Assembly: GCA_033581555.1 (NCBI GenBank)
Contig: JAVQSZ010000002.1
Location: forward strand, 70,065-134,064
Reading direction: 5' to 3'
Length of the DNA stretch: 64,000 nt
From: Nitrososphaerota archaeon
GTDB lineage: Archaea; Thermoproteota; Nitrososphaeria_A; Caldarchaeales; Calditenuaceae
This document shows, in pieces, positions 13,837-43,057 of the stretch. The notes under the pieces are model-generated. The model was not told the origin of the DNA, made no database searches, and saw only the letters and a program-made list of their open reading frames with translations. A program made the translations under genes and the position numbers. Position 1 is the stretch's first letter. Every line of letters starts with the position of its first letter.

Positions 13837-13910
<74 letters not shown>

Positions 13911-16337: not shown

Positions 16338-16338
16338 C

Positions 16339-21009: not shown

Positions 21010-22629
21010 TTATGGTTGCTGACTTTTCGTTGACCTTTCAATGAAATAATTCTTGTACATCTCGCGAAGGGCCTTCTTGTCGAACTTCCCTGTCCCTGTT
21101 TTCGGTATCGATTCGACGAAGATTATTTCATCGGGTAACTGCCACTTAGCCACCCGTTCTCTCAGGTGATCGATTATCTCTGCCTTACCGATTTTGTTCA
21201 CGTAATCGCCCTTGAGTACAACAAAAGCCAGAGGCCTCTCCTGCCATACCTCGTGTGGAACCCCCACGACGGCTGCTTCGAGTACAGCGGGGTGACTCAT
21301 TATGAGATTCTCTAAGTCAACCGATGAGATCCATTCTCCCCCGCTCCTTATGAGGTCTTTGTATCTATCGACTATCTGAATGTAGCCCTTTTCATCAATA
21401 GTCGCCGCATCACCAGTTCTCAACCATCCTCCACAGAAGGATTGAGCTGTCCTCTCTGGGTCCTTGAAGTACGAGTCGATAACCCACGCTCCCCTGAACA
21501 GTAGTTCTCCGACCGACTTCCCATCCCGAGGAAGCTCGTTCCCCTCCTGATCCACGACCTTGACCTCGATGCCGGGGACCGGTATTCCCTGCTTGAGCTT
21601 GACCCTCCTCACCTCCTCCTCGTTGCCGTCGATGTCCCTCTTGAGCCAGTTGACCACCGCGGCTGGCCCCTCGGTCATCCCCCACGCGTGCACTACCTCC
21701 ACACCTAATTCCTCGAACTCGTTCAATATCGCCGGCGTGAGAGAGGCTCCTCCGACGATGACCCTCTTCAGGCTGCTGATGTCGTAGTTCCGGGTTTTGT
21801 TGAGGTGATTGAGGAAGTTGATCCAGACGGTCGGTGCGCCTGCGGTCACGGTCACCCTTTCGCCCTCTATCAGCTCAGCGAGCCTCTGAGGGGTAGGATG
21901 TGGACCGGGTAGGACGATCTTCGCTCCCGCTATCATCGAGGAGAAGGGGAGGAACCATCCGACCGCATGGAAAAGCGGGACCTGTAGGAGCACCACGTCA
22001 CGGTCCGTCAGGTTGAAGAACTGAGGGAGACAGAGCGCCAGCCCAGCGATGAACACGCTTCTGTGGCTGTGAATCACTCCCTTGGGAGGCCCAGTCGTTC
22101 CGCTCGTGTAGAGGAGGAACGCCGGCGCGTTCTCGTCTAGGCTGTCGGGGAACTCGAAGCCCTGCTGGCCGTTCTCCAGTAATTTCTCATACGACGCGAC
22201 CCCTGACCGGTGTTCCGTCTGATCCTCCCCCATGATTACGCATCTGAGGTCGTGCCTGCCCAATTCCGCGAAGGCGGCGTACTGGTCTTCGTCGACGAAG
22301 ACGATCTTGTCGTCCGCGTGGTTGAGAATGTAACCTATTTCACGCTTCGAAAGTCTGAGGTTCAACGTGTGCAGGACGGCGCCCATGCAGGGGACGGCGT
22401 AGTACAGCTCGAGGTGACGGTGAGTGTTCCACGCGAGCGTTCCCACGACGTCGGCCTCGCCTACACCTAAGCCCCGGAGAGCTGAGCCGAGCCGCTTTAC
22501 CCTTTCGTAAAACTCAGTGTAGCTGTATCTTAAAATTTCACCGTCCGATTTATAAGAAGCTATCTCCTGACTTCCGAATAATAAGGCCGCACGCCTGAGG
22601 ACGCAGATTAAACTCAACTGAAAGACCAC
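21010..22629 (-). CDS. AMP-forming acyl-CoA synthetase / fatty-acid-CoA ligase
   Basis: 539 aa. AMP-binding P-loop LLYTSGTTGPPKGV; later YRTGDAA... and GKFDKKALRE C-terminal lysine motif. Confidence 0.85.
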   Translation of the reverse strand: MVFQLSLICVLRRAALLFGSQEIASYKSDGEILRYSYTEFYERVKRLGSALRGLGVGEADVVGTLAWNTHRHLELYYAVPCMGAVLHTLNLRLSKREIGYILNHADDKIVFVDEDQYAAFAELGRHDLRCVIMGEDQTEHRSGVASYEKLLENGQQGFEFPDSLDENAPAFLLYTSGTTGPPKGVIHSHRSVFIAGLALCLPQFFNLTDRDVVLLQVPLFHAVGWFLPFSSMIAGAKIVLPGPHPTPQRLAELIEGERVTVTAGAPTVWINFLNHLNKTRNYDISSLKRVIVGGASLTPAILNEFEELGVEVVHAWGMTEGPAAVVNWLKRDIDGNEEEVRRVKLKQGIPVPGIEVKVVDQEGNELPRDGKSVGELLFRGAWVIDSYFKDPERTAQSFCGGWLRTGDAATIDEKGYIQIVDRYKDLIRSGGEWISSVDLENLIMSHPAVLEAAVVGVPHEVWQERPLAFVVLKGDYVNKIGKAEIIDHLRERVAKWQLPDEIIFVESIPKTGTGKFDKKALREMYKNYFIERSTKSQQP

Positions 22630-22714: not shown

Positions 22715-24181
22715 GTGAAAGAGATGATCAGAAACCCAGAAGATTATATAGCGAGCATACAGGACGGCAGGGAAGTCTATTACATGGGTAAGAGGGTTAG
22801 CGACATCGCCGGCCACCCGTCCCTCAGGATCCCGCTCCATCACGCAAAAAGGATGTACGAACTGAGGAGCGACCCAGCCTACAGGGCTACACTCGTCTAC
22901 GAGGACGAGAGGTTCGGTCCCGTCAGCTCCTTCTTCAAGGTACCTAGGAGTGAGCAGGACCTAGTGGAACGCGCAGAGACGATCGGTGCCCTCACGAGGG
23001 CCTGCAACGGGATATTCAACATCACGCAGGCGATAGGAAGCGACGCCCTGTTCGCGCTGATGATAATCACGAAGAGGCTGGAGAAGGAGCAGGGCAAGGG
23101 CGAATACCACGAGAGGCTGATGAGGTATTACGAGCACGTCGTGACCCGGGACTTGGCGCTAGCGACGGCCCAGATGGACGTCAAGGGGGATCGGTCCAAG
23201 AGGCCCCACGAGCAGCCCGACCCCGACCTCTACCTACGGGTCGTGGAGGTGAGCGAGGGCGGAATCGTGGTCTGCGGTGCCAAGGCCCACACGACCCAGA
23301 GCGTAGTCGCCGACGAGCTGTTCTTCATCCCCAGCAGGGCAATGACCGAGAAGGACCAAGACTACTCCGTTGCCTTCGCGATCCCCGCAAACGCGAAGGG
23401 CCTCAAGTTCATCGTGAGGCCCCTGTTGGAGTTCGACGGTTACGCGGAGAAGGAGGACGCCCCGCTCAGCTCGTCGAACCTCGAGGCCGAGACGCTCACG
23501 GTCCTTGACCACGTCTTCGTCCCATGGGACCGGGTCTTCCTCTTCAAGGAGTGGAGGTTAGCCGGCGAGCTCGCGAACCTATTCGCAACCTACCACAGGT
23601 ATACGGCGGTCAGTTACCGGTCCGTCCTGGTCGACCTCTTCTTAGGCGCGGCGAGGCTGGCGGCCGCTTGCAACGGCATCGAGAACGCGCCGCACGTCAG
23701 GGACGACATCTTGGACATAGTCCTCTACAAGGAGATCATGCGCATGGCCACGAGGATGGCCGCGTTGAAGGCGATCCGCGACCCCGAAACGGGGATCCTC
23801 GTGCCGAACCCCGTCTACACAAACATCGGCAAGCTGTACTCGAACGCCTTCTTCCCAGTCGTGATCAAGAACCTGATCGACATAGCTGGAGGACTCGTCT
23901 CCACCCTTCCCTCGACCGCAGAGCTCAAGAACCCGGCCACTGGGCACTACATAGAGAAGTTCATGCAGGGCAGTCCGAAGTTCAGCGGGCTGGATCGATT
24001 CAAAGTCATGAGACTCGTGCGGGAGCTGGCTGGAGGGCCCCTGACCGGATACCTGTTAGGCGCCATGATACACGCGGAGGGATCCGTCGCCGCCAGCAAG
24101 ATCGCGCTCTACAGGGACTACGACTTCGCCGAGGCCGAGAGGCTCGCCATGAAGGTAGCGGGGCTGAGCGAGGGAGAGTGA
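22715..24181 (+). CDS. HpaB / 4-hydroxybutyryl-CoA dehydratase family protein (4-hydroxyphenylacetate 3-monooxygenase-like fold)
   Basis: 488 aa. Family-level resemblance from the N-terminus (EDYIASIQDGREVYYMGKRV) and length. Only three scattered Cys, so no clear AbfD-type [4Fe-4S] ligand set. Subfamily not resolved. Confidence 0.55.
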   Translation: MKEMIRNPEDYIASIQDGREVYYMGKRVSDIAGHPSLRIPLHHAKRMYELRSDPAYRATLVYEDERFGPVSSFFKVPRSEQDLVERAETIGALTRACNGIFNITQAIGSDALFALMIITKRLEKEQGKGEYHERLMRYYEHVVTRDLALATAQMDVKGDRSKRPHEQPDPDLYLRVVEVSEGGIVVCGAKAHTTQSVVADELFFIPSRAMTEKDQDYSVAFAIPANAKGLKFIVRPLLEFDGYAEKEDAPLSSSNLEAETLTVLDHVFVPWDRVFLFKEWRLAGELANLFATYHRYTAVSYRSVLVDLFLGAARLAAACNGIENAPHVRDDILDIVLYKEIMRMATRMAALKAIRDPETGILVPNPVYTNIGKLYSNAFFPVVIKNLIDIAGGLVSTLPSTAELKNPATGHYIEKFMQGSPKFSGLDRFKVMRLVRELAGGPLTGYLLGAMIHAEGSVAASKIALYRDYDFAEAERLAMKVAGLSEGE

Positions 24182-24194
24182 GTCACCCGATAGT

Positions 24195-24248
24195 CCGAAG
24201 GCGAACTCGAGCTCCGAACTTCGGCGATCACAAGCCCCCTTTTCGCTT
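24195..24248 (+). terminator. Candidate transcription terminator downstream of the HpaB-like gene
   Basis: Inverted repeat CCGAAG(24195-24200)/CTTCGG(24219-24224), followed by C5T4-rich tract CCCCCTTTTCGCTT (24235-24248). Archaeal terminators are typically oligo-T tracts. Confidence 0.3.
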
Positions 24249-24284
24249 AACCGGAGCGAAATCGACCTCTGACCGACAGCTCGG

Positions 24285-25181
24285 TCAACGTGTGAAAGTC
24301 TGATGAGATACCTCGTAACGCGAGTACTTGATCATCCCGAGTCCCGCTGTCCTCTCGTCGCCGACGTTGAAGAGTTCCCCCAGCTTGAGAAGCGCATCGG
24401 TGAACCTCATGAAGGTCTCGGACATCAGCGAGTCTGAGGGTATTACGTAGTGGACCCTCCCCAAGAATCCGATGCTCGCCCCACCCCGTTTCAATGAGAC
24501 AGTCTTTATGCCCTTCGGATAGCCAGAGCACGCAACCCCCCCGGCCTTCAGCCACCTCCTGTACGCCTCATTAGGAACTGGCGTCTCGCCGAGGTTGGCA
24601 ACCCAGAAGTTAAGGAGGCTCACCAACAGCCTCTCAGGATCGGGGAACATCACGTTGCGCGGAGGAGCCAGCCACACTCGATCACCGCTTAGGCCCAGCA
24701 GATCGGACACGTCCCTCGGCGGCGCGGTAAACCTTGTGGGTGTGATGAAGCGTACCGCGAATCTGTTCACCGGGACTGACCTCTTCCAGAGCTCTCGAAG
24801 TTCTATCAATCTGAAGTCGATGGCCTCAACTTTGCACTCAGTTCCGTTGAATGAGACCTTGTTGAGCGCCATTATTCCTTTGCTGAGCGCTCCACTGAGT
24901 CGTTCACCGAGAGCAGTTACGTTGAAGTAGAAAATCTTCTCAGGAAGTAAATACCTGTACACGGGCTCCGCAGTTGCTGCATCGATCACCGGCGTGACAG
25001 AGTAGGGCGCCGGCTTATTTGTTGAGTGAATCTCGTCAGCCAAGCTACCGTCAACCGAGGACAATATATTGTAAAATAATCCCTGTACCGCGTATCCACT
25101 GTAATCTGAGAAAGTGATCGGCGCTCTGGTTTTGAACGAGATAGTGAACCTCGCGCACAATTCTTGGGAGTCGTATTTCAT
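24285..25181 (-). CDS. cas6: Cas6-like CRISPR RNA endoribonuclease (last gene of the type I-A cassette)
   Basis: 298 aa. Its position after cas8a and a C-terminal glycine-rich segment (KRGGASIGFLGRVHY) fit the Cas6 G-rich loop. The rest of the assignment rests on operon context. Confidence 0.55.
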   Translation of the reverse strand: MKYDSQELCARFTISFKTRAPITFSDYSGYAVQGLFYNILSSVDGSLADEIHSTNKPAPYSVTPVIDAATAEPVYRYLLPEKIFYFNVTALGERLSGALSKGIMALNKVSFNGTECKVEAIDFRLIELRELWKRSVPVNRFAVRFITPTRFTAPPRDVSDLLGLSGDRVWLAPPRNVMFPDPERLLVSLLNFWVANLGETPVPNEAYRRWLKAGGVACSGYPKGIKTVSLKRGGASIGFLGRVHYVIPSDSLMSETFMRFTDALLKLGELFNVGDERTAGLGMIKYSRYEVSHQTFTR

Positions 25182-26311
25182 ATCGCTCTGCTGAGTTTCC
25201 TTGCGATTCTCAGACTTCTCCTCTGAAGCATGTACAAATTGAAATCCTTGTCGCCTCTGTTAGGAAGTTTGTTCGTGTCCATCAACACCCAACGCATGAA
25301 CTCCCTGTCAACCGTGTATACGAACTCCTCATAAGGCTTGAGACCGTGTATGACCTCATAGAGGAGAACAGAATATCTGATCGCTGCGGCCCTCTCGGAG
25401 CCGCTGTTAGTCGCGTCCAGCGCCACCTCGAGGAGCCCATGGAAGTCGTCCGCCACCCCGTTACCGTCTATGATACCGCATCTTCTCAGCTCTGCGTAGG
25501 TCCGATCGAGTCTCATGGTCATCGAAGTGAAGATCGATGCTGGTGCGCTCCCCCCGGGCTCTCTAATCGCGTATACGGATACGCTCGTCGAGCGCATGAG
25601 GCTCGCCATCAGTAGGTGGAGTGCCGACTCGGGGAAGAGTCCCGCCAAACGTCCCTTTCTCTTACCTACATAAGTGCTTAGGTCCTTGTAGCCGGTTTGA
25701 TGCGAAATAATGCGCTCCGCGTTGATGGTGAAGCCCCTCTCCGTCGAGGACGTCAGCGGGGTCACCACGACCGTAACGTAGTCGTTCACTCCTACCAACG
25801 TCCTGCCTACCGCGCATCCGAGGTAACCGCATAACGCGAGCGCTATCGAAGATAATGGGTATTTTTTGCTTTTAATGAGGCCAGCCGTAGAATAGCCTGG
25901 AACCCTGTTGTGTTCATAGAACTCAGGCTTGAGTATTTCTATCAGTCTAAAATTTTCATTCGAGGACACGACGGAACGCAAATTGTCCTTCACCAGCTTC
26001 AAGAAAGAAAGGGCGTCTATCCCTTCATCTCGCTTTCCGAGTTCTCGCAATATCTCTACCATCACTTTCTTATCGTTCCCACTCATCGGCAGCCTGAGAG
26101 AGACCCCCTTACTCACCGATGCTTGCTTCTCTTCCAGAAGTTGTTCCACTGCTTCTAATGCGTTTTCTAAGGCCTTTACAGGTCTAGGACCGTCTACGAT
26201 TATTTCCGTAGGCGTTACGGTTATTCTGTACGCAGGGTCTAAATGGAACAATAATCCGAGTAGACAATCAGTAGCGAATTTGGGGAGAAGCTTTATTGTA
26301 AGCGTAGGCAC
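25178..26311 (-). CDS. cas8a: Cas8a-like large subunit candidate (Cas8a2/Csa4-type) of type I-A Cascade
   Basis: 377 aa with no clear motif. Assigned from its canonical position between cas3'' and cas6 in I-A cassettes and from its size; overlaps both flanking genes by 4 and 1 nt. Confidence 0.4.
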   Translation of the reverse strand: MPTLTIKLLPKFATDCLLGLLFHLDPAYRITVTPTEIIVDGPRPVKALENALEAVEQLLEEKQASVSKGVSLRLPMSGNDKKVMVEILRELGKRDEGIDALSFLKLVKDNLRSVVSSNENFRLIEILKPEFYEHNRVPGYSTAGLIKSKKYPLSSIALALCGYLGCAVGRTLVGVNDYVTVVVTPLTSSTERGFTINAERIISHQTGYKDLSTYVGKRKGRLAGLFPESALHLLMASLMRSTSVSVYAIREPGGSAPASIFTSMTMRLDRTYAELRRCGIIDGNGVADDFHGLLEVALDATNSGSERAAAIRYSVLLYEVIHGLKPYEEFVYTVDREFMRWVLMDTNKLPNRGDKDFNLYMLQRRSLRIARKLSRAI

Positions 26312-27129
26312 TAAACTTCACCTCCTAATGCGCTCTTCAGCTCCTCGATGAATTGAGTACGACTAGATGTCGATTCGTCGCTCCGCCTGCTCTCGGAAGC
26401 ATCTAGGTTGTCTCCTATCAATATCGGTAAGAGAATCAAAACATACCCCTTCAGCTTCTTTCTCCTGGTAGAATCTTCTTCAAAATTCGATATGCTTTTC
26501 ATCAGCTCTACGACTTCCTCAAAAGATATCTTCTCAGCTAGCGCTTCGTGAACGTGATAGGTCTCTATCCCCGTTCGTCTAGATATGTAATCGGACAAGT
26601 TGGAGAGATATTCTCTCTTGATATATCCACCGGTTTTTATCAAGTGGATAAACTTGTCGCGAATTTCTCTGTGCTCGCCGCTAAGATAAGTCACATCGAA
26701 CGTGAAAGCCTCTTTGAAGTTATCGAAAGTCCTACCCATGGCGTGCAGATGATCCAAAACAGCGAGAACAGTCAAGTGTGTGAGATCGCTCTTCTCTCCT
26801 AAACTGTCAAAAACTCTCTTAAGGTATACAGCTGAAAACACCTCATGTAGGTAGAAGCCAGACGCCCTTCCCTCTATAGGGGTGCAATCGTCTTCGTAAT
26901 TGACTTGGTATGCTTCGATAGCCTTTCCTACGTCATGAAACACGCCGGCGATCATAATACTCTGCTTGATCTCCTCGGGCGAGGTCCCTATACCTAAGAC
27001 TCTGAGGCGTCCCGAAACAGTCTCGTGGTAGCCGTTATCGATTATCTTCTCAACATATTTCAGGACTCCTTCGGTGTGTCGTATCAGCGATTGACCTCTA
27101 TAAGCACACGGCTTGCAGTCGGTCACCAC
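26311..27129 (-). CDS. cas3'': Cas3'' HD nuclease domain protein (split Cas3, type I-A)
   Basis: 272 aa. HD-domain metal motifs H..(GVFHDVGK) and downstream His (DHLHAMG); a standalone HD gene immediately after a DExH helicase gene. Confidence 0.75.
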   Translation of the reverse strand: MVTDCKPCAYRGQSLIRHTEGVLKYVEKIIDNGYHETVSGRLRVLGIGTSPEEIKQSIMIAGVFHDVGKAIEAYQVNYEDDCTPIEGRASGFYLHEVFSAVYLKRVFDSLGEKSDLTHLTVLAVLDHLHAMGRTFDNFKEAFTFDVTYLSGEHREIRDKFIHLIKTGGYIKREYLSNLSDYISRRTGIETYHVHEALAEKISFEEVVELMKSISNFEEDSTRRKKLKGYVLILLPILIGDNLDASESRRSDESTSSRTQFIEELKSALGGEV

Positions 27130-28796
27130 TGCATACCTACCTCCTCATCATAGCCTTCTAAAATTACCGCTGCTATGTTATTCATCACGAATTGCTTCGA
27201 TAGGCAGTCCGCTCTCGATGACAGTCTGATGTCTTTACGCCGCACAATTTCCTTTGACTCGGTGACGAACTCCTTGATCCGCTCGGAGTCGAACAGCCTC
27301 CAAAATTCTTCGTCTCCTATCGTGAATATTAGATTAATTCGCTCCTGAGGGTTCTTTACGAAGGTATCCGCGTATGCTCTGGGAACGACCGGAATCATCT
27401 CTCCCTCACGAACGAACCCACAATAAGCCTCCCACACTTTTACAGCAACCCTTGCAGAGAGGGATGGATAAAAGTCCACCAGCCTCAGCTGATAGAGCAG
27501 GCTCCTGTCTACGAGCCGGGTTTCAACGTAATCGTCATAAACCTCGAGTAGTGCGGTAGACAACTCTCTCATCCCCAGGAGCTTTCGAAGGGTCTTCTCA
27601 ACCAGCTCTTCGGCGTACACACTCTTTCCGCCCTCGCTCAGTGGATATATGAGCACCTTACCAGATCCGCCTTTCCTCGCTACTCTACCGGCCCTCTGAA
27701 TGAGCGAGTCTGGTGGAGCGGCCTCGGTTATCAGAGCGTCGAAGCTCATGTCTACGCCCGCTTCAAAAATCTGTGTGGCTACAACAACGCACGGCCCTCT
27801 CTCTACTTCGGAAAGCCTCCGTCTTCTCTCGGCCTCAATCATCTTCGCGTGAAGTATTACAGGCTTGATCCCTTCCTTCTGCAAGGACCTGTAAATCTCA
27901 ATCGCGTTTCTTACCGTATTGGCGATAACTAATACGCGGCTGAACCTCCTCGCGGCTTCAACTATCTGACTTAATTTATCCTCTTCTCCCACTATTTCTA
28001 CATCGATCTGTCTTTTAACAAATCCAAGATCAGATTGTGAAGGCATTATCTCTTTTATGAGTGAATCCTCTAACACTCTTTCGACCTCTTCTTTTATTTT
28101 GTTTTTAATTAGTTGAGGCATCGTCGCTGTAGATATTATAACGGGAACTCCCATTTCTAGTAAGCCTATTATGCTTGTAATCGCAGAAGTTAACATTTTG
28201 CTTCGCCCATTCACAATAGAATTCGAGCTTACAAAGAGGTGAAATTCATCGAAGACTACTGTCGCGGAGTAAATGCAGCCCCTAGGCACCTCATAGTGAG
28301 CGTAGCCCTTAGTAAAGAGTTTCTTTAATTCTACCGGAGGGATCTTATATAATGAAGAGACGAACGTATCGAGGGTTGTGATGACGAACCTCTTACATAA
28401 CATAGGACTTCCCGGAGAGCTCATCTGTTGAAGGCCTACTTCATCCCCAGCCAGTGGAAGCCCGGTTTCACTCAATCTCCCCACATAATCCCGCATCCTC
28501 TTCAGCATGTGTGTCCCTATCGAGCGCATAGGTAGGACGTGTATCACCCTCTGCCCTAAGTCAGCCCTCCCTTGTTTAATTGCGGCGTAAATGGTGAGAG
28601 AGAGGGTACTCTTGCCGTAGCCCGTTGGGGCCTCAAGAAAGATAAGAGTCCTCGACTCCTCTCTTACCCCCTCTTCAAGGGCTGAGAGGGTCTTTTCTAA
28701 CAAGGGCCTCGCGTCTCCGTTGAAGAGTTTGCGGCTGATGTCCTGATAGACCTCACTCAAAGACTGCGAGCCCATCATCCCCCACCCTGTAAGCAT
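27123..28796 (-). CDS. cas3': Cas3' DExH helicase (split Cas3, type I-A)
   Basis: 557 aa. Walker A EAPTGYGKST, DExH box VVFDEFH, motif VI QRAGRVARKG. The start may be a slightly internal Met, since the ORF overlaps cas5 by 44 nt. Confidence 0.8.
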   Translation of the reverse strand: MLTGWGMMGSQSLSEVYQDISRKLFNGDARPLLEKTLSALEEGVREESRTLIFLEAPTGYGKSTLSLTIYAAIKQGRADLGQRVIHVLPMRSIGTHMLKRMRDYVGRLSETGLPLAGDEVGLQQMSSPGSPMLCKRFVITTLDTFVSSLYKIPPVELKKLFTKGYAHYEVPRGCIYSATVVFDEFHLFVSSNSIVNGRSKMLTSAITSIIGLLEMGVPVIISTATMPQLIKNKIKEEVERVLEDSLIKEIMPSQSDLGFVKRQIDVEIVGEEDKLSQIVEAARRFSRVLVIANTVRNAIEIYRSLQKEGIKPVILHAKMIEAERRRRLSEVERGPCVVVATQIFEAGVDMSFDALITEAAPPDSLIQRAGRVARKGGSGKVLIYPLSEGGKSVYAEELVEKTLRKLLGMRELSTALLEVYDDYVETRLVDRSLLYQLRLVDFYPSLSARVAVKVWEAYCGFVREGEMIPVVPRAYADTFVKNPQERINLIFTIGDEEFWRLFDSERIKEFVTESKEIVRRKDIRLSSRADCLSKQFVMNNIAAVILEGYDEEVGMQW

Positions 28797-29586
28797 CGTG
28801 CCTCTCAGCCAACTTGATCCTCATCCAGCAGCTCGAGACCGGGTCCCTACTGCCCGGGATGATGTATTCTTCCGTCTCAGGCTCACCGACCCATCGGTAG
28901 TCAAGCGCCCAGAAGGACTCCGTATAAACACCTGATAGGGCGTACGGTCCGCCTCCGTATTCTAAGACGTCTTCCACCAGCCTCTTAGGGTGGTAGAAAC
29001 GGGTTCTATACTCCCGTCCGATCATTACGGCCTTCCTGAGGTCTGCCTGCTCGACCGAGACGATGCCCTCTTTTGAGCCGAGAGCTGTAATCGAGTTAGC
29101 CGCCACGAGTAGCTTGTGCTCCCAGTCTTTCCCGAGCTTCTCCTCAGCTAGCTCCTCCTTGACGAGCAGGCCTAACGTTAACAATCCCGAGGGCATGTAG
29201 ATTTTACCCGTGGGAACGACGTTGAACCTGTACAGTGGGTCCCCCCGCCTACTGGGCCTCTGGAACTGCAGGATTTGATATCTCACTATGTCCTCCCAGT
29301 ATTTTCCGACGCGTTTCTCTCCGCCTTCCTCTTCCACGAAGAACGCAGATGCCGAAGCGAAGATGTCCTTATAGAGTTCTGCGCTCGATCCAATCACCGC
29401 CTTCCCCATCTGTGATACGGTGATAAGTTCTCCTGTCTTGCCCATCACGCACAATGGCTTTGATATCGCTCCGATGATCGTTGTTGGTGGGGGAGGTGAG
29501 GAGTAGGCGTGCTGGACTTTCGATACTAGGGGGGTCTTGACGCTGAAACCCCAACATAGTCTGAGATCGATCGTCAAGCTCATCAT
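28753..29586 (-). CDS. cas5: Cas5 (Cas5a, type I-A)
   Basis: 277 aa. N-terminal Cas5 signature ...AYSSPPPPTTIIGAISKPL (PPP[ST]TI[IV]G), glycine-rich loop. Confidence 0.75.
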   Translation of the reverse strand: MMSLTIDLRLCWGFSVKTPLVSKVQHAYSSPPPPTTIIGAISKPLCVMGKTGELITVSQMGKAVIGSSAELYKDIFASASAFFVEEEGGEKRVGKYWEDIVRYQILQFQRPSRRGDPLYRFNVVPTGKIYMPSGLLTLGLLVKEELAEEKLGKDWEHKLLVAANSITALGSKEGIVSVEQADLRKAVMIGREYRTRFYHPKRLVEDVLEYGGGPYALSGVYTESFWALDYRWVGEPETEEYIIPGSRDPVSSCWMRIKLAERHDAYRVGDDGLAVFE

Positions 29587-29596
29587 GGTTGATCTA

Positions 29597-30619
29597 CTAT
29601 TTGCCTTGTGTGACCAGATTCATGATGTCTTCGAAAACGTCCTCGAGCGTTTCGTGTTTTGAGACGCCGGCGGGGACGCTCAACCCCTCTCTATTCACGC
29701 ACCATACTTTGACTTCATGACCTGTTAGCGCCAAGTACTTCTGCGCCCTCTTCCACGTCCTCTCAACGTAGTCGGTGTAGTTCCCTGGAGAGACAGTGAA
29801 GGAGTCACGAGATAGCGCGAGCACGGAAGACCTAAGCTCGATGTTGGGGAAGAACCTCGACCTCTTCCCGCCATAGGAGTTGTTGGTAAGCAGCTTCAGG
29901 AGCGCGATCAGAGCGGCCTTTCTCCTATTGGGGATCGAATTGCTTAGTTCTTGTTTTTTCTTCTCCAATTCATCGCGCGCTCCCTTTGGAGTTTCCCCGA
30001 AAACGTTAGATGGTACGCCGATTCCTGCTAAGTCGAGGTTTAGGTTAAGCGTGTATACAGAAGAGGCTATCTCGACGTTATACGGGATCTGACCGAGTTT
30101 GGCGTCTTTCCCAGCCTGCGAGAACAGGTAGCGAACGTGAAACTCAGCCTCCATCGCGGTGGCGTTAAGCACGTCCTGGATAGCTGGGATCATGTATCCG
30201 ACCTGAAAGCGGGATGTTCGTTTAACTGGGATATCACCAGTGTAAAGGAACCCGCCTACGTCGGCTACAATGTCTTTCAATAGAACGTCTATTTCGAACC
30301 TCATGATGTCCTCGTGGCTCTTCGGCGGCTTGACACCCTCTTCCGTAAGATAGCTGTCCTCAGAGAACTTGATGAACTCGTTTCTGGATGAGAATACGCC
30401 TACAGGCAATTTCATAGATTTCGCTACGTCGACTAACAGAGCCTGATATCCGTGGGCTATTGATTCTCCGGAGACTGCTGGCACGTATTTCAGGGTGTAG
30501 CCGTCGTGCTGTGGGATCACCATCGGTACAGTTCGATGCCTCGACAGGTTGCCGACGGTCTCGACCGAGTTGAGGGCCTCGACGTTCATCAAGCACCTCA
30601 AGGATATGCTGAGGAACAC
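29597..30619 (-). CDS. cas7: Cas7 (Csa2) backbone subunit, type I-A
   Basis: 340 aa. N-terminal MNVEALNSVETVGNLSRHR and overall RAMP pattern typical of Csa2. Confidence 0.75.
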   Translation of the reverse strand: MFLSISLRCLMNVEALNSVETVGNLSRHRTVPMVIPQHDGYTLKYVPAVSGESIAHGYQALLVDVAKSMKLPVGVFSSRNEFIKFSEDSYLTEEGVKPPKSHEDIMRFEIDVLLKDIVADVGGFLYTGDIPVKRTSRFQVGYMIPAIQDVLNATAMEAEFHVRYLFSQAGKDAKLGQIPYNVEIASSVYTLNLNLDLAGIGVPSNVFGETPKGARDELEKKKQELSNSIPNRRKAALIALLKLLTNNSYGGKRSRFFPNIELRSSVLALSRDSFTVSPGNYTDYVERTWKRAQKYLALTGHEVKVWCVNREGLSVPAGVSKHETLEDVFEDIMNLVTQGK

Positions 30620-30620
30620 C

Positions 30621-31067
30621 TCACTTCACCTCGCCCTGTTGAGCCGAAGGGGCTCTCAATCTCGACTCCACCAGTATCGCCGAGGCATACGCACCGATCT
30701 TCCTGGCAAGCGATGTATCGCTCTGAACCTTATCGATGAATTCCCTAACCATCTCGCTGCTGGGGAGGTGTCCCACGATCTGAAAGACACCGATTTCGTC
30801 CTGCACCTCGACGACCCGATACTCCCGCCCAGTGGTCGTTGTCTTAGTGCCAACCCTAAGTCTCCGTTCACTCTCGGATCGCGCTAGCTCGCTGTCTACG
30901 AGCCTCAGCGAGTCCCGTATAGTTCGAACCGCGGGCTCGGGGTTTAGCGCGTTAGCCATCCTGTCGATCATCGAGGGCGAACCGCTCAGAGCAGCAGCTG
31001 TAGCCAGGAGGACAGCGATCGGTCTGAACCCTTCTAGATCATGTTGAGGAGACTTACTCCCTGTCAT
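30621..31067 (-). CDS. csa5: Csa5 (Cas11 small subunit, type I-A)
   Basis: ORF track 30621..31130. The first 21 codons lie in AT-rich promoter-like DNA and would overlap csa3. The internal Met at 31067 gives a 148 aa alpha-helical protein, typical Csa5 size, immediately upstream of cas7. Confidence 0.6.
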   Translation of the reverse strand: MTGSKSPQHDLEGFRPIAVLLATAAALSGSPSMIDRMANALNPEPAVRTIRDSLRLVDSELARSESERRLRVGTKTTTTGREYRVVEVQDEIGVFQIVGHLPSSEMVREFIDKVQSDTSLARKIGAYASAILVESRLRAPSAQQGEVK

Positions 31068-31119
31068 GCGAGCCAAAAATATACAAGATGGTATATAAGA
31101 TTTATTCACCCGGAAAGGA
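31068..31119. promoter_or_regulatory. Divergent csa5/csa3 promoter region with a shared symmetric TATATA element
   Basis: AT-rich 52 nt spacer gagccaaaaatatacaagatggtatataagatttattcacccggaaaggA. TATATAAG at 31093-31100 lies 20-27 nt upstream of the csa3 ATG (31120). On the other strand it lies about 26-31 nt upstream of the csa5 ATG (31067). Both spacings suit leaderless archaeal transcripts. Confidence 0.4.
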
Positions 31120-31839
31120 ATGCATTCCATCTACTTGAAACAGATAAAAGCCTTATTACGGCTTAGTGAAACCATAGAGTCGATGATTTTAGCGGTCACG
31201 CTGGGCTTCGACGAGAAGTTCGCGGTCAGGGCCGTCATTCGGCACTCACACTCACGGCTGACCCGCATCGTGGTGATAACGCCTGCGCTTAGGGCGGATG
31301 AACGCACGGAGGCGGCGATTGGATCTCTGAGGGAGTTCCTGAGGAGATACCTCCAGATCGAGGACGTCGAGAGGGTTGAGGTGAGCGTGGACGACTGTTT
31401 CGACGCCGTCGGCGAACTCGTTGGAATGTTCGACTCGTGGGCAGGAGACGCCGTGACCCTCAACTTAAGCGGCGGAATGAGGCTCCTCGTGATCGAGTGT
31501 CTGATCGGCGCGCTGATGAGCAGGACACTTATGACCATCGAACTGGAGAGCGAAGACGGTTCGGCTTACTTTAGTTTCGGGAACGATTACTTCGATCCAG
31601 CCGTTTTCAACGAAATCGACCATATAGACAAACTGATTCTGAAATATCTAACTAACAAATGTTCCGCGTCTTCGTTGTCGAAGTTGTTGGATCTCCCCAA
31701 GTCTTCTGCTTGGAGGAGGGTAAGGAAACTTGAGAGGCTCGGGCTCGTCGAGGTGGAAAGGGTGGGCAGGTCTCTTGCGGTGAGGCCTACCGACAAAGGA
31801 AGAGTGCTGAGAAGCATCATGCGCGACCTACACCGCTAA
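31120..31839 (+). CDS. csa3: Csa3: CARF-domain + winged-HTH CRISPR-associated transcriptional regulator
   Basis: 239 aa. N-terminal Rossmann-like CARF (ILAVTLGFDEKFAVRAV, VVITPA, VTLNLSGGMRLLVIECL). C-terminal wHTH (LILKYLTNK...LSKLLDLPKSSAWRRVRKLERLGLVE). The alternative start at Met22 is 31183. Confidence 0.7.
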   Translation: MHSIYLKQIKALLRLSETIESMILAVTLGFDEKFAVRAVIRHSHSRLTRIVVITPALRADERTEAAIGSLREFLRRYLQIEDVERVEVSVDDCFDAVGELVGMFDSWAGDAVTLNLSGGMRLLVIECLIGALMSRTLMTIELESEDGSAYFSFGNDYFDPAVFNEIDHIDKLILKYLTNKCSASSLSKLLDLPKSSAWRRVRKLERLGLVEVERVGRSLAVRPTDKGRVLRSIMRDLHR

Positions 31840-31866
31840 CGCTTAGAGTTGAAGCCGAGCCCCCGC

Positions 31867-32286
31867 TCAATCGAGTTTCTGGACGACGTCGTGAACGATG
31901 ACGTTGGTCTTGTCGCCGATGCGCGTTATAGTGGCCTTAGCGATGAAGGCACTCCCGCGTTTGATCAGACCCACAGGGCCGTAGTAGTTAGTGGATTCGA
32001 GCCTTGCCATGAACCGGTCGTTGACCTTTACCACCGCGAACCCCTTGTAAACACGCTCCACCTCGACCTTTAGGAGCCTCCCTCCAGCGAACCTCGACCT
32101 CACCGCGGACGATGCGACGTACCTGCCCCTCACTTTCACCACCCTCCTCGACCTCATTAAGCCCCTGAGGACTGACCGGGCCCTAGAGGGCTCGAGTTCG
32201 AGCTCCTGCGCGACGTCCTCCAGCGTCATCCCTGCCCTGCCTGCGGTCAGGAGAAGCATGTACACCTCCTTCGTAAGGGAGGTCAT
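31867..32286 (-). CDS. Hypothetical protein: N-terminal winged-helix + C-terminal beta-rich domain
   Basis: 139 aa. MarR-like wHTH (VYMLLLTAGRAGMTLEDVAQELELEPSRARSVLRGLMRS). The C-terminal ~70 aa is predicted beta-rich (LLKVEVERVYKGFAVVKVNDRF...). Lower-GC codon usage like the cas genes. Confidence 0.45.
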   Translation of the reverse strand: MTSLTKEVYMLLLTAGRAGMTLEDVAQELELEPSRARSVLRGLMRSRRVVKVRGRYVASSAVRSRFAGGRLLKVEVERVYKGFAVVKVNDRFMARLESTNYYGPVGLIKRGSAFIAKATITRIGDKTNVIVHDVVQKLD

Positions 32287-32415
32287 CTCTCAACAAGTGG
32301 ACTAGTCGTTAAAATAGGTCTACTTCGTCCGGATTTACCGAATGCAACTTTAGAAGACGTATGGAATGTTTTACTATATCCTTACTGGAATAATATGTCT
32401 CAACATATAAGCCAT

Positions 32416-33315
32416 CTACTTTTTTAGGACTACGGAACTTTTTCCATCCCTGTGCTCAGGAGTATCATTGATCAGAACACGGTAGCCACGACGGGATGTC
32501 GTCTGTACTGGTAATTTGTCTTTATCCAACCGTTTAGTTTCAAGCAACCACTCTGCACATCTGGTCAATATATCTTTCCACACTCTAATTTCATACTCCT
32601 TACCGTCAGGGAATCTTATCGACTTGTAACGTAACGGTTCTCCTTTCTTGGGTTTAAGTTCACTTAGCGGTAGACCTTTCCTGTCACGATAAGGAGGCGC
32701 AATTACGGTAGGAGGAGGACTGCCTATGCCGGCGTACCTCATTATCGAAAAGGCGTTCCTGATGACTTCGCCCGGCTCCATCTTCCTTATGTCCCATTCT
32801 GCGATCTTCTTTTCATGCAGAGGCTTCTGCACTTGGGTGTCATAGACCTCCCACTTCGCCCCATCGGTCGCGATGAAGTATCTCACTCCCTCCGACACGC
32901 AGTATGACACCTGCTGAATCAAGTCCTCCTCCTTCCCCAGGCTCTTAGCACCTATGAACGCGATCCTCTGGCCGTTCAGCAGAAGCGCGTAGTCAGGTCT
33001 TCCGGCCTGAGTGGAGACTTCGGGTATGACGAGGTTCGGGTCTTCGGTGTCCCAACCTAGCGCCCTCAGGAAGGGGTCGATGAGCACGTACCTTGTCAGG
33101 GTCTCGCTTTTCTGTAACATGTCACGGTGACTTTCGATTTTCATTCTAAGCTGCCTGACGAGATCAACGAGTCCTTCAAGCGCCACAATCCTAATTTTAA
33201 AATCATAAATATATACTTTATGGGAAATAATTTGTAGGACCGACTGTCGATGTGCGAAACCTAAGTTTACGCTCCTCAATTGAGGCTGCTTTACCGCTAC
33301 GCGACCCTCCAACAT
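32416..33315 (-). CDS. HsdR_N-like (type I restriction enzyme R N-terminal / Mrr-like PD-(D/E)xK) domain protein with uncharacterised C-terminal domain
   Basis: HsdR_N pattern SETLTRYVLIDPFLRALGW...GRPDYALLL...IAFIGAKSLGKEE...GVRYFIATDGAKWEVYD. The C-terminal ~110 aa is K/R-rich and unknown. Start uncertain: Met1 at 33315 would overlap the hef 3' end by ~100 nt; the internal Met at 33144 gives 243 aa. Low-GC island codon usage. Confidence 0.5.
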   Translation of the reverse strand: MLEGRVAVKQPQLRSVNLGFAHRQSVLQIISHKVYIYDFKIRIVALEGLVDLVRQLRMKIESHRDMLQKSETLTRYVLIDPFLRALGWDTEDPNLVIPEVSTQAGRPDYALLLNGQRIAFIGAKSLGKEEDLIQQVSYCVSEGVRYFIATDGAKWEVYDTQVQKPLHEKKIAEWDIRKMEPGEVIRNAFSIMRYAGIGSPPPTVIAPPYRDRKGLPLSELKPKKGEPLRYKSIRFPDGKEYEIRVWKDILTRCAEWLLETKRLDKDKLPVQTTSRRGYRVLINDTPEHRDGKSSVVLKK

Positions 33316-34897
33316 TGGTCCACGGCCAAGGATGACCCACCACGGGTTCAGGCCCCCTTCGCGGAACCAGAACTCCCGGCAAGTCCCTCGAGGCGAGCTT
33401 CAGGACCCTCTCGACCCGCCGGGCCCTCCTATACCCCTCCCTGAAGTAGTACTCGTCTATCGTCCCCTTGGTCACCAGAATAACGACCCTGCCGGGTAAC
33501 CTCCTCCCCGTCCTACCCCTCCTCTGGATGTACCTGATCCCGGACACGGTCGGCTCGTAGAAGACGACCAGCCCACACTCGGGGACGTCGAGCCCCTCCT
33601 CACCGATAGACGTGGCCACCAATACGCTGAACTTCCCCGCCCTGAACTCCTTCAGGATCCTGACCTGCTCGTCCTGGGTCATCCTCGGGCCCGACTTGCC
33701 CTCCGCCTTCCCCACGAAGAGGTGGGCTCTGATACCCCTAGAGCTCATCCTCTCGACGAGGAGCTCAGCCGTAGACCTGAGGTTGGCGAAGACCAGGACC
33801 CTGTCGCCAGGGTTGGAGGAGAGGTGTTCGCTCAGGACCCTGAGGAGGACCTCGACCTTCGGGTGCTCGGCCTCGCATCCCTTCACGAGCTCCACCAGCT
33901 CGCGGAAGTCTGGGCTCGATGACAGGACCCTGTGGCTCCTGCGCCTAGACCTCCTCACCTCGTCGAGGTATCTGAGGAGGAGTGAAGCGTGCTGACTCTC
34001 CACGAGCTCCAGGGCGTAGAAGAGGCTGAGGACTTCGGAGAGGACTACGAGGGAGTGGGCGACCAACCCCCTCGCACCGGACCCGAGCTCCGCCTTCAGC
34101 CGCTCCATCACCGCGAGCAGCGACCTCCGGTTGAACTCGATCCCCTCGAGGGCGACGTAACCCGTTGACCGGAGCCTCTCAAGCCTCGACTCGATCATCT
34201 CCTTGATCTTCGACCTGATTCTTTCGTACTGCTCGGGGAGGGAGACGGTGACCCAGCTGACGTCGGTGCCGGGCACGTAAGCCTTCACGTCCTCGTCCTC
34301 CTCGGTCCTCCATTCGATCCTCTCTATCCAGAGGTTCCTGACCAGCTCCTTCACCCTCTCGGGGTCCGAACCTGGAGAGGCTGTGAGCGCGAGGATCAGG
34401 GGCCATGGGCAGGCCTTGACGTACTCGTTCGCGATCCGCGTGTACGCGTAACGCTCCCTGGACCTGTGGCACTCGTCCATCACGACGACCGCGAACTCCT
34501 CGAGGTTCACGAGGCCCCTGGAGATGTCGTTCCAGACCGTCTGGGGCGTGGCGAGGACTAGCCTTACGCTCGGGTCGAGCCAATACCGTTCCCTGTCGGG
34601 GACGTCGCCGGTCAGCGCCGCGACCTCCCTCCTCTCGAGCCTCAGGTGGGCGAGGACGCTGGAGGTGTGCTGTAGGACGAGGGGCTTGGTCGGGGCCATG
34701 ACTAGGGCCCTGCACCCGGGATACCTGTGGAGGACCTCCGCGACGACGAGCTCCGCGATTACGGTCTTCCCGAGCGCGGTCGGGAGGACGACCAGCGTGT
34801 TGCCCCTCAGCGCGGCCTCCGCGATCCTGACCTGGTACTCGCGCCTCAGCAGGGTCCTCTCCCTCACCATCGGGTGCTCGATGAACTGGACCTCCAT
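33218..34897 (-). CDS. hef: Hef/FANCM-like superfamily 2 helicase (no nuclease domain)
   Basis: 559 aa. Motif I VVLPTALGKT, II MDECHRS, III LTASPG, V ATSIGEEGLDVP, VI QRRGRTGRR. The last ~40 codons run into AT-rich island-boundary DNA; see findings. Confidence 0.75.
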   Translation of the reverse strand: MEVQFIEHPMVRERTLLRREYQVRIAEAALRGNTLVVLPTALGKTVIAELVVAEVLHRYPGCRALVMAPTKPLVLQHTSSVLAHLRLERREVAALTGDVPDRERYWLDPSVRLVLATPQTVWNDISRGLVNLEEFAVVVMDECHRSRERYAYTRIANEYVKACPWPLILALTASPGSDPERVKELVRNLWIERIEWRTEEDEDVKAYVPGTDVSWVTVSLPEQYERIRSKIKEMIESRLERLRSTGYVALEGIEFNRRSLLAVMERLKAELGSGARGLVAHSLVVLSEVLSLFYALELVESQHASLLLRYLDEVRRSRRRSHRVLSSSPDFRELVELVKGCEAEHPKVEVLLRVLSEHLSSNPGDRVLVFANLRSTAELLVERMSSRGIRAHLFVGKAEGKSGPRMTQDEQVRILKEFRAGKFSVLVATSIGEEGLDVPECGLVVFYEPTVSGIRYIQRRGRTGRRLPGRVVILVTKGTIDEYYFREGYRRARRVERVLKLASRDLPGVLVPRRGPEPVVGHPWPWTNVGGSRSGKAASIEERKLRFRTSTVGPTNYFP

Positions 34898-35018
34898 CCC
34901 TTAGGACGCGGCCGGCTCCGCCTAATTTGCCATCGCGTGCTCGACCGTTCTAGTGCCCAACAGACCGAGGACTTAACGCGGCAGACCTTTTTACCAGTCC
35001 GAGTCCGGAACGTTTGGG

Positions 35019-35402
35019 ATGAAGCGGGTCTCGCCGAGGGCGCTGAGGAGGATGCAGGAGAGGCTCCTGTCGTCGTCGGGGATATCGATGAACGAGCTTG
35101 GCGAGGCGAGGGTCCTGATCGAGCTGGGTGAAAGGAGGATAAGGCTCGAGGGCGTGACGGTCGTCGAGCTCGAGGGCCCGATGGGGAAGGTCTACCAGCT
35201 GGTGGGGGGTAGAGAGGTCGAGGAGGTAGCGGTGAGCGAGGAGGTTCAGGCTACGGCCGCGAGCGTTCCGGAGGTCAGCGATGAGGACGTAGCCCTGGTG
35301 GCCGCACAAGCGGGGGTCTCTGAGGAGGAGGCGAGGAGGGCCCTGATCGAGGCCGGAGGCGACCTCGCGAGGGCCATACTCTCGCTCAGGTCCAGGAAGT
35401 AG
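35019..35402 (+). CDS. nac: Nascent polypeptide-associated complex protein (NAC alpha homologue) with C-terminal UBA-like domain
   Basis: 127 aa. N-terminal PRALRRMQERL...MNELGEARVLIELGERRI; C-terminal EEEARRALIEAGGDLARAI (UBA). Confidence 0.8.
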   Translation: MKRVSPRALRRMQERLLSSSGISMNELGEARVLIELGERRIRLEGVTVVELEGPMGKVYQLVGGREVEEVAVSEEVQATAASVPEVSDEDVALVAAQAGVSEEEARRALIEAGGDLARAILSLRSRK

Positions 35403-35403
35403 T

Positions 35404-35808
35404 TCAGAGGCCGACGTAGTGCAGCTTCACGTGCTCCCTCATCAGCTCCCCGTAGGGCGTGGCATAGCCACAGTGGGGACAGACGTGAAGACCAGGGTCG
35501 GCCGGACCTGCCGTGCTCAGCGCGAGCCTGACCTCTTCAGGGTTGAGCACGACCACCCTCAGCCTCTCGCCGTCGGACTCCACCTTGCAGTGCTCCGAGA
35601 CGCTCAACTCCCCTAGGGCGTCCCGAACGAGGCCGAGGAGGGCGGCCTGGCTCGGCCTCGACCAGCTGACCGAGAGGTCTATCGCGACCGACCCCTCCCT
35701 GGGGACCGCGATCCCGCCCAACTCAACAAGGCGCTCGGTGAGCCTCGCCGCGAGGGGGACCTCGAGCCCCCTGAAGCCCACGACGACGACGTAGACGACG
35801 TCCCTCAA
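35404..35808 (-). CDS. Hypothetical protein with C-terminal C2H2-type zinc-finger-like motif
   Basis: 134 aa; C-terminal CPHCGYATPYGELMREHVKLH (C-x2-C...H-x4-H). No other recognisable motif. Confidence 0.35.
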   Translation of the reverse strand: MRDVVYVVVVGFRGLEVPLAARLTERLVELGGIAVPREGSVAIDLSVSWSRPSQAALLGLVRDALGELSVSEHCKVESDGERLRVVVLNPEEVRLALSTAGPADPGLHVCPHCGYATPYGELMREHVKLHYVGL

Positions 35809-36359
35809 GTCCCGGTCACCCGCGGAGCTGAAGTCTTCATTTGGGAGAAGATCACCCTCAGCCTTTCGACGCCGCCGATGCTCCTGATGTACTCCGCGAC
35901 CTCGGGCTGGACGTAGTCCTCCCAGGGCCCTCCCTCGACCATCAGCCTCCTGATCTCGGTCCCGTTGAACCTCTCCCTCTCGAAGAGCTGGGGCTCCCTC
36001 ACCCTGATCCCCGAGGACTCCGCCAACAGCTTTACGAAGGGGTTGTTGGTGTAGAGCGCCTCGAACTTGGGCACCGTGGCTACCACCCTGCTGATCCAGA
36101 GATGGTGCTCTCCGATGTCCGGCACCGGGACCGGAATCACCCTCGAGAGGTCGTGTCCCGCGCTCTTCAGGCCTATGCGGATCATCTCGATCCTCTCACC
36201 CGCGGTGAAGGGGTTGTCGGGCGTGTAGCTGAACTGGGAGCTCCCTATAGCGACTATGAGCTCGTCGTTCTCCGATAGTGCTTGTTCAGCGGCCCTGAGG
36301 TGTCCGAGGTGAAACGGCTGGAACCTCCCGACCAGCAGCCCCCGCTTCGGTATCGCCAA
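35805..36359 (-). CDS. nadM: Nicotinamide-nucleotide adenylyltransferase, archaeal type
   Basis: 184 aa. VGRFQPFHLGHL (HxGH nucleotidyltransferase motif in the archaeal NMNAT context), later ISRV. Confidence 0.85.
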   Translation of the reverse strand: MAIPKRGLLVGRFQPFHLGHLRAAEQALSENDELIVAIGSSQFSYTPDNPFTAGERIEMIRIGLKSAGHDLSRVIPVPVPDIGEHHLWISRVVATVPKFEALYTNNPFVKLLAESSGIRVREPQLFERERFNGTEIRRLMVEGGPWEDYVQPEVAEYIRSIGGVERLRVIFSQMKTSAPRVTGT

Positions 36360-36469
36360 CCCGTGCCGTCGTAGCGGCGACTCTCTAATTAACGGAACAC
36401 CGGTCCTTCCTTCGACCGATCCGGGACCACAAAACTATTAACGCCCCCCAAATCGCGTGCTAGAGGCGC

Positions 36470-36889
36470 ATGTCGACCACTTACGAGGTGCCCAGCGGGC
36501 TGAGCTACTCTAGGAACCACGAGTGGGTCAGGCAGAAGGGCAAGTACGCGGTGATCGGGGTCACGGACTACGTCCAGAAGAAGCTGCGGGAGATACTCTA
36601 CGTGGAGCTCCCGAACATCAACACCAAGCTCACCAGAGGCCAGCACCTCGCGACGATCGAGTCGGTCGGGGGGAGCCACGAGGTGAGGGCCCCGGTCAGC
36701 GGGAAGATAGTTGAGGTGAACGCGAGGCTCATCGACAGCCCCGAGCTGATCAACGAGTACCCCTACGAGGACGGTTGGATCTGCAGGATGGAGGTCTCGG
36801 ACCCGACGGAGCTAGAGGACCTGATGCAGCCCGACGAGTACACTAGATACATCGAGGAGCTTGAGCTGGAGGCTAGCGAGACCGAGTGA
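36470..36889 (+). CDS. gcvH: Glycine cleavage system H protein family member lacking the canonical lipoyl-lysine
   Basis: 139 aa. Classic GcvH pattern (YSRNHEWVR..., AVIGVTDYVQKKL, DPYEDGWI). The lipoylation motif is ESVGGSHEV instead of ESVKA, with Gly in place of the Lys. Confidence 0.7.
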   Translation: MSTTYEVPSGLSYSRNHEWVRQKGKYAVIGVTDYVQKKLREILYVELPNINTKLTRGQHLATIESVGGSHEVRAPVSGKIVEVNARLIDSPELINEYPYEDGWICRMEVSDPTELEDLMQPDEYTRYIEELELEASETE

Positions 36890-36904
36890 GCGCCGTTCAC
36901 TCTC

Positions 36905-37885: not shown

Positions 37886-38229
37886 GCACCCCCCGACCTC
37901 CTCAGGACGAGCCTCAACGCGGTGCTCAAAGATATCGCGGCTGCGGCCGTCACGGCGAAGTAGACGACCGCGGGAAGCGAGACGAGGACGACAGTCGGCA
38001 GCCCAACGACTGCAGAGAGCAGCTCGGCGAGCCTGAAAGACTTCGGGTGCGAGAGGGTGGAGAGGAGCGCGACGACGTAAGGCAACGTCCCGACGGCCGC
38101 GAACGGGATCGCGTGAGCCCTCCTCTCGAGCAGCGACCCGCCGATCAGTCCGGTGATCAGGGCCGCGACCGCCCAGAGGCCGGAAGGCAAGATGATCAGA
38201 GCCAAGGCGCCGACTGGAACGCCGATCAT
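37882..38229 (-). CDS. Small integral membrane protein (about 115 aa, 3-4 TM)
   Basis: Internal Met MIGVPVGALALIILPSGLW... of ORF 37882..38349; hydrophobic throughout; 4 nt overlap with the AKR start. Confidence 0.45.
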   Translation of the reverse strand: MIGVPVGALALIILPSGLWAVAALITGLIGGSLLERRAHAIPFAAVGTLPYVVALLSTLSHPKSFRLAELLSAVVGLPTVVLVSLPAVVYFAVTAAAAISLSTALRLVLRRSGGA

Positions 38230-38258
38230 CGGAAGGATGCTCCTCGCCCTCAACCCGG

Positions 38259-40799: not shown

Positions 40800-40847
40800 C
40801 GAATACGGGAGGAGCGTTCTTGGAAATAAAGGGGATTGATTGGTGCC

Positions 40848-41447: not shown

Positions 41448-41504
41448 TTCCGTTGATTATTAACTGTTTAGCAAAAACGCGTTCGACTATGAGGGTTAAC
41501 ACCG

Positions 41505-43056: not shown

Positions 43057-43057
43057 C

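Follow-up and report, generated by a model that had tools for sequence, protein, structure and literature searches.

An interference-only type I-A CRISPR-Cas cassette in a Calditenuaceae genome as the probable deletion remnant of a complete locus

We analyzed a 64,000-nucleotide (nt) stretch (hereafter, the window) of contig JAVQSZ010000002.1 (positions 70,065 to 134,064; assembly GCA_033581555.1), which is derived from a metagenome-assembled genome (MAG) of a high-GC member of the Calditenuaceae (Aigarchaeota). One segment of this window corresponds to the interference half of a typical archaeal type I-A CRISPR-Cas locus. Seven genes on the minus strand are arranged in the order csa5-cas7-cas5a-cas3'-cas3''-cas8a(csaX)-cas6, and the regulatory gene csa3 is divergent from csa5 on the plus strand. 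The array-less and adaptation-less state of this locus is secondary, as a deletion removed csa1-cas1-cas2-cas4, the leader, and the array. Overall, a deletion remnant of an ordinary complete I-A locus is the best explanation of the cassette, and we hold it with considerable confidence.

The key comparison is with L087 (compared loci are referred to by L numbers), a 3,060-bp contig of GCA_025058175.1, which is a sister MAG of the same species. Bases 1-114 of L087 correspond to the 3' end of cas6 and are 97.4% identical to window positions 24425-24312, and the first 82 of them match the end of L001, the closest allele, at 100% identity. After cas6, L087 continues with csa1, cas1, cas2, cas4, the leader, and the first repeat GAACCTCACGAAGAGGATTGAAAG, with which the contig ends. 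Collinearity between the window and L087 extends to position 24312, below which the alignment is random or unrelated. The breakpoint (24311/24312) is nine codons before the present stop codon of cas6, and this gene is now fused to the 130 bp preceding the convergent hpaB gene. This junction segment (24182..24311; no strand assigned), located between the hpaB stop (24181) and the breakpoint, provides cas6 with its new last 8 codons and stop codon. No homology was found between the junction segment and the sister csa1 region, and a blastn search of 24101-24312 against all compared relative loci returned nothing significant.

Because the sister haplotype is collinear to 24312 and the relatives run on from cas6 to cas1, we attribute the present state to a deletion. 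The order cas6-csa1-cas1 was found in L002, L090, L085, and L111, and cas1 lies within ~1 kb of cas6 in all 12 clade relatives (metagenomic and genomic) with contigs reaching past cas6. The Cas6 tail reads ...RYEVSHQTFTR* in the window and ...RHE(T/I)CS* in L087, L090, and L002, with ...RHETCS* being the ancestral form. A 930-bp "gap" after cas6 in L002 was considered as a possible array and rejected, as it is coding and csa1-like. Relief of self-targeting is a possible cause of the deletion.

The junction is real because the Cas6 tail that it created (...RYEVSHQTFTR) recurs in four assemblies. This tail is encoded in the source genome (MDW8042933.1), in GCA_025058175.1, where a 95-kb contig ends in a partial Cas6 (MCS7127276.1), in a third MAG (MCX8203856.1), and in a Logan contig, in which the Cas6 allele is full length and has six other amino-acid differences. 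As contigs of both kinds, the deletion type and L087, were assembled in GCA_025058175.1, that sample had both haplotypes, and the deletion and complete haplotypes co-occur in the same hot-spring population. Judging from the contig breaks, the deletion type appears to be the major haplotype.

The initial annotation had noted no array, no cas1, cas2, cas4, or csa1, and no integrase or transposase in the 64 kb, and our searches bear this out. No CRISPR array was found in the window by four methods (Tandem Repeats Finder, a repeat finder, Rfam, and our own k-mer array detector), the last of which detected arrays in 23 related loci. In the window, zero matches to the cognate repeat were obtained at three or fewer mismatches, and no degenerate terminal repeat was found in the 130-bp junction segment. 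With Csa1, Cas1, Cas2, and Cas4 of the sister genome as queries, tblastn gave no significant match in the window, nor did the Cas1 of a relative. A weak Cas2-like match of 27 amino acids (aa) inside an HSDR_N-like open reading frame (ORF) of the island (E = 0.004, single-subject search) was judged to be due to chance. In Pfam scans and precomputed annotation, the flanking genes are housekeeping genes only, and no integrase or transposase was found in the flanks, a few small or doubtful ORFs there having no match or being unscanned. The contiguous array-free DNA extends for 24 kb past cas6 and for 30 kb beyond the opposite end of the cassette.

For the cassette itself, hidden Markov models support every gene call of the I-A set proposed previously, including the divergent csa3. 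The gene cas6 (24285..25181, minus strand), encoding the pre-CRISPR RNA (pre-crRNA) endoribonuclease, matches PF10040 (1.7e-11; 45.2 bits, cutoff 25) and PADLOC Cas6 (8e-20). Its GenBank product (MDW8042933.1, 252 aa) has a later start than this ORF, and the glycine-rich loop GDERTAGLG is retained despite the deletion. The candidate large-subunit gene cas8a/csaX (25178..26311, minus strand) matches PADLOC Cas8a (CAS-I-A effector_LS; 4.3e-23) and CsaX (1.2e-22) and is below the NCBIfam CsaX cutoff (TIGR03876; 78.7 bits vs. 222.5). PF27795 matches orthologues of this gene, which occupies the cas8a position after cas3'', and in published work a csaX gene at this point of the operon is regarded as cas8a under another name (PMC4141822). 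No sequence relative of the CsaX/Cas8a protein was found in PDB. Cas3 is split into two adjacent genes that are both above their NCBIfam cutoffs: cas3'' (26311..27129, minus strand; TIGR01596, 45.4 bits, cutoff 43.45) for the HD nuclease, with the HD dipeptide at residue 65, and cas3' (27123..28796, minus strand; TIGR01587, 191.7 bits, cutoff 102.45; PF22590, 6.6e-24) for the superfamily 2 (SF2) helicase, with the motifs GYGKS, DEFH, SAT/TAT, and QRAGRVAR.

Upstream of these are cas5a (28753..29586, minus strand; TIGR01874, 39.7 bits, cutoff 23.05; PADLOC Cas5a, 1.5e-29) and cas7/csa2 (29597..30619, minus strand; TIGR02583, 250.8 bits, cutoff 212.6), which encodes the Cascade backbone subunit. 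The Cas7 of the window is identical to MDW8042938.1, which is encoded on a 205,777-bp contig, and matches P0246 at 340 of 340 residues. Hef is MDW8042943.1, and the accession spacing between MDW8042933 and MDW8042943 agrees with the gene order in the window. Separately, a 99-aa Cas7 fragment of this cassette has been deposited under an "Anaerolineae bacterium" MAG, probably as a binning error. The small-subunit gene csa5/cas11a (30621..31067, minus strand; 148 aa) matches PF09702 (8.9e-19; 68.2 bits, cutoff 23) and PADLOC Cas11a (1.6e-19), and is below the cutoff of the NCBIfam equivalog (41.5 vs. 53.35). The length of 148 aa follows the annotation of the sister MAG.

The gene csa3 (31183..31839, plus strand) encodes a regulator with CARF and winged-helix domains (PF22662, 6.6e-23; HTH_24, 4.5e-07; TIGR01884, 86.2 bits, cutoff 60.2) and is Csa3b-like, as it is positioned next to the interference cassette. 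The annotated starts of csa5 and csa3 are probably at 31067 and 31183, which therefore leaves a divergent promoter region of 115 bp (31068..31182; intergenic, no strand assigned). This region has a TATA-like box CTTATATAC at 31091-31099, ~25-35 nt upstream of the csa5 ATG, and a perfect 12-nt palindrome GGAATGCATTCC at 31117-31128, upstream of that box. The TATA-like box is conserved in all five aligned sequences, and the palindrome is shared by the window, L001, L089, and L003, with one change in the last. Because the palindrome overlaps the ATG of a longer csa5 ORF that extends to 31130, this longer form is probably spurious. We infer that the palindrome is a candidate Csa3 operator. The Csa3b-controlled promoter of the Sulfolobus cassette similarly has a palindrome upstream of the TATA box (PMC5389559). 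However, the Sulfolobus motif (TTTTCN8GAAAA) differs in sequence from GGAATGCATTCC, and the operator described here is a candidate.

Each of the eight cas ORFs is uninterrupted, and the catalytic motifs are retained. The ratio of nonsynonymous to synonymous substitution rates (dN/dS) is 0.07-0.24 in comparisons with L003 and L090, and these alignments indicate that the cassette has been under long-term purifying selection. It shows no excess decay. A supply of crRNAs in trans is plausible because the relatives carry dispersed arrays with the same repeat. Arrays with GAACCTCACGAAGAGGATTGAAAG are dispersed, without I-A cas genes within 5-8 kb, in SKYB103, SKYB46, and DT_Bin_10. The same 24-nt repeat, GAACCTCAC(G/A)AAGAGGATTGAAAG, is common to the arrays of at least five Calditenuaceae/Caldarchaeales MAGs that belong to different species (L091-L118). 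Many arrays with this 24-nt repeat are located at contig ends, and assembly breaks caused by arrays are pervasive in the group.

On balance, we lean toward the view that what remains of the locus is still a working DNA-targeting effector, guided by crRNAs that are supplied in trans. Based on the gene content, Cas6 would cut pre-crRNA from same-repeat arrays elsewhere in the genome to give an 8-nt ATTGAAAG handle, and Cas7, Cas5a, Cas8a, and Csa5 would assemble on the crRNA with Cas3' and Cas3''. Csa3 would regulate the promoter via the conserved palindrome. Such a strain could interfere by using existing spacers and would not be able to acquire new spacers with its own I-A adaptation genes.

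Several points weigh against a deletion remnant that works in this manner. Compared with the closest allele L001, the overall dN/dS is ~0.45, and csaX has 17 nonsynonymous vs. 3 synonymous changes. This increase could reflect relaxed selection, although it is not concentrated in the window lineage (12 derived replacements there and 15 in the L001 lineage). The Cas6 C-terminus was altered by the deletion, and the activity of this enzyme is predicted. No array of this species was found outside L087, and the one repeat scan of the genome collection gave other species only. A search for a Cas1 with a neighboring accession (MDW80429xx) was likewise negative, which fits the loss of adaptation genes and is uninformative on arrays. 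Regarding the deletion itself, none of the array loci from that scan reaches DNA homologous to the hpaB side, where the distal endpoint would be. Moreover, the presence of both haplotypes in one MAG bin might conceivably reflect one genome with a second, partial copy of cas6.

These points bear on an alternative that we consider unlikely, though worth weighing seriously, in which the cassette is a recently orphaned and inert remnant that has no compatible array and is heading to pseudogenization or loss. Archaeal CRISPR loci often undergo deletions (PMC4390879), and an inert remnant would fit the recovery of the arrays and adaptation genes of this species only on the contig with the complete haplotype, as well as the dN/dS relative to the closest allele, which is raised above all in csaX and csa5. 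Yet the window lineage has accumulated no excess of derived replacements, all eight ORFs remain open and keep their catalytic motifs, and a diverged allele in another assembly encodes a full-length Cas6 of the deletion type. In the relatives, it is also the rule for arrays with the cognate repeat to be dispersed, and we continue to favor a cassette that is still functional.

In an otherwise near-clonal background, strain-level variation has a hotspot at the cas locus. The flanks are 99.4-100% identical among strains, whereas diversity is patchy and raised inside the island. Two other MAGs belong to the same species, namely, GCA_025058175.1 and GCA_025054565.1. In the former, a 368-kb contig is 99.92% identical to window positions 31687-44897 and ends inside csa3; nine of the 10 differences in this 13.2 kb fall in a 250-nt interval (31750-32000) that immediately precedes the contig break. 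In the latter, the cassette is on a 7.9-kb contig that is 98.9% identical and has both ends inside the island. Compared with L089, a Logan contig (SRR7039830), the flank is 99.4% and the cassette 96.1% identical. Differences from L001 are patchy along the island, with the amino-acid differences clustered C-terminally in CsaX/Cas8a (residues 343-367) and Cas3' (residues 481-540). These two clusters are separated by kilobase stretches without any difference, which suggests recombination tracts or diversifying selection on particular surfaces. It is conceivable, though doubtful, that the two haplotypes are kept together, such that most cells are interference-only and avoid the cost or autoimmunity of adaptation, a minority maintains the full locus, and cassettes and arrays are shuttled by recombination. 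If true, this would be a population-level division of labor in the CRISPR immunity of an uncultivated thermophile.

It is very unlikely that the junction is an assembly artefact, i.e., a chimeric contig that skips the adaptation genes and the array of a locus that is really complete. Breaks at the cassette edges in three other assemblies, a contig of the complete form in the sister bin, and the seemingly shared samples of the MDW and MCS records would all be compatible with such an error. However, the window has three single-nucleotide polymorphisms (SNPs) in the 37 nt before the breakpoint, and the window therefore represents a distinct allele rather than a chimeric join with L087. In addition, no long shared k-mer was found at the junction, and the junction tail is present in four assemblies, including on a 95-kb contig of a different assembly and in the divergent Logan allele. 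As an observation about these records, identical proteins are found under paired MCS71... and MDW80... accessions. Therefore, the same hot-spring samples were apparently assembled or binned and deposited twice, and MAGs that seem "independent" may not be independent samples.

The compositional break at ~24.3-33.3 kb that was described in the initial annotation is evident in both the GC profile in 1-kb windows and the third-position GC content (GC3) per gene. The GC content is 0.60-0.68 in the flanks and 0.455-0.54 across 25-33 kb, and is ~0.51 at 24.3-33.3 kb as a whole compared to 0.65 in the flanks. The GC3 is 0.53-0.69 in the eight cas genes and 0.84-0.93 in host genes. In most relatives, the GC content of the locus is also below that of its own flanks, and the gap is greatest in this high-GC lineage. 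The GC3 contrast, the different chromosomal sites in relatives, and the patchy, raised diversity of the island compared to flanks that are 99.4-100% identical support a horizontal origin of the locus, as had been suggested from composition.

For chromosomal position, L003 (SRR28200751) has csa3 abutting the POR operon at the equivalent of window position 13950. Bases 1-8265 of L003 align with window positions 13950-19227 and 28828-31827, with ~88% identity in the flank and ~80% in the cassette. At the point beside the POR/ABC operon where L003 has its I-A locus, the window has a tRNA-Gly (13837-13910). The stretch from cas3' to cas4 is uninterrupted in L090 (SRR28200751), and SKYB46 has an array beside ABC-transporter genes. 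The position on the hef side is common to at least three assemblies of the window's species, such that the acquisition predates the divergence of these strains. It is hardly credible that an interference-only module was acquired alone or was repurposed for a crRNA-independent function: the island is compositionally foreign, and a Sulfolobus Cascade subcomplex without crRNA joins Csa3b in promoter repression (PMC5389559), but the breakpoint inside cas6 and the sister haplotype that is collinear to that base imply that the module arrived within a complete locus, the outgroups argue against a later insertion of csa1 through the array into cas6, and the intact cas6, cas3', and cas3'' that are kept would not be needed for a purely regulatory role. 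The repurposed effector module raised in the initial annotation thus gives way to a remnant of a complete I-A locus, as indicated by the sister haplotype L087 that departs at 24312.

Archaea are already known to have interference-only type I modules and to undergo deletions in CRISPR loci. What is new here is a deletion allele that has been mapped and occurs alongside the complete one, rather than a new kind of system. The csa3b gene and the seven-gene cassette form a described unit in Sulfolobus, with the same genes (csa5, cas7, cas5, cas3', cas3'', cas8a, and cas6) and a tightly associated csa3 with CARF and helix-turn-helix (HTH) domains (PMC5389559). The case described here differs in having a Calditenuaceae (Aigarchaeota) host and a divergent csa3 at the csa5 end. 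Among complete archaeal genomes, 11 type I "interference alone" modules were listed compared to 106 integral systems (Vestergaard et al., 2014; PMC3973734, Table 1). Those modules likewise comprise a type I interference cassette without an adjoining adaptation module, whereas in our case the origin is traced to a specific deletion and the complete form persists in co-occurring strains. The Caldarchaeales MAG of Pelearchaeum maunauluense, from the same archaeal order, has a putative cas locus of the same subtype (I-A) that lacks a nearby array, its arrays being located on separate contigs (PMC10547907). While MAG fragmentation could explain the gap in that genome, here the array-free DNA is contiguous for 24 kb and 30 kb.

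The coupling between adaptation and interference modules is loose, and the modules can be exchanged (PMC4390879). CRISPR loci of Sulfolobus similarly lose CRISPR DNA by deletion and vary between strains whose genomes are otherwise alike (Garrett et al., 2015; PMC4390879), whereas the deletion described here also removed csa1-cas1-cas2-cas4 and ends inside cas6 rather than between repeats. The I-A Cascade of Thermoproteus tenax has the same subunits, namely, split Cas3'/Cas3'' with Cas7, Cas5a, Cas8a, and Csa5 (Plagens et al., 2014; PMC4005679). In comparison, the large subunit in the window is a moderate match to CsaX/Cas8a without a PDB relative, and this complex is predicted from its genes. 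This locus provides a clean natural example of a deletion in which the adaptation genes and the array are gone, the effector is spared, the breakpoint is mapped at base level, and both alleles are found in one community. It may be used for asking about the persistence of interference-only strains and about any immunity that dispersed arrays give them. The locus also calls for caution, as an "orphan" effector cassette on a MAG contig can be a strain variant of a normal complete I-A locus.

Beyond the cas genes, the island contains two other genes. The first (31867..32286, minus strand; GC3 0.79) encodes a 139-aa winged helix-turn-helix (wHTH) protein with weak matches to TrmB/IclR HTH domains. 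This gene is located between csa3 and hef in all sampled strains (L001, L004, and L089), and the nine clustered SNPs compared to GCA_025058175.1 are around it. Homologues with ~50% identity were found upstream of csa3 in two distant relatives (L018 613-870 and L022 1-138), which hints at a loose association of this wHTH protein with the I-A locus.

The second gene (32416-33315) belongs to a strain-variable indel of ~1 kb (32287..33316, minus strand; GC ~0.51) and encodes an HSDR_N-like nuclease of the PD-(D/E)xK type (PF04313, 2.7e-07). PADLOC gave weak matches for this gene (N-terminus of a type IIG restriction endonuclease and PDC-M54B). The indel is present in the window, L004, and GCA_025058175.1, and is absent from L089. 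Its boundary is inside hef, and the last 33 codons of the window hef differ from those of the 565-aa form.

Outside the island, the gene for an AMP-binding acyl-CoA synthetase (21010-22629) has a GC3 of 0.69 and a GC content of 0.55, compared to a GC3 of 0.84-0.90 in its neighbors. This contrast suggests a second foreign or variable gene, located one gene away from the cas island.

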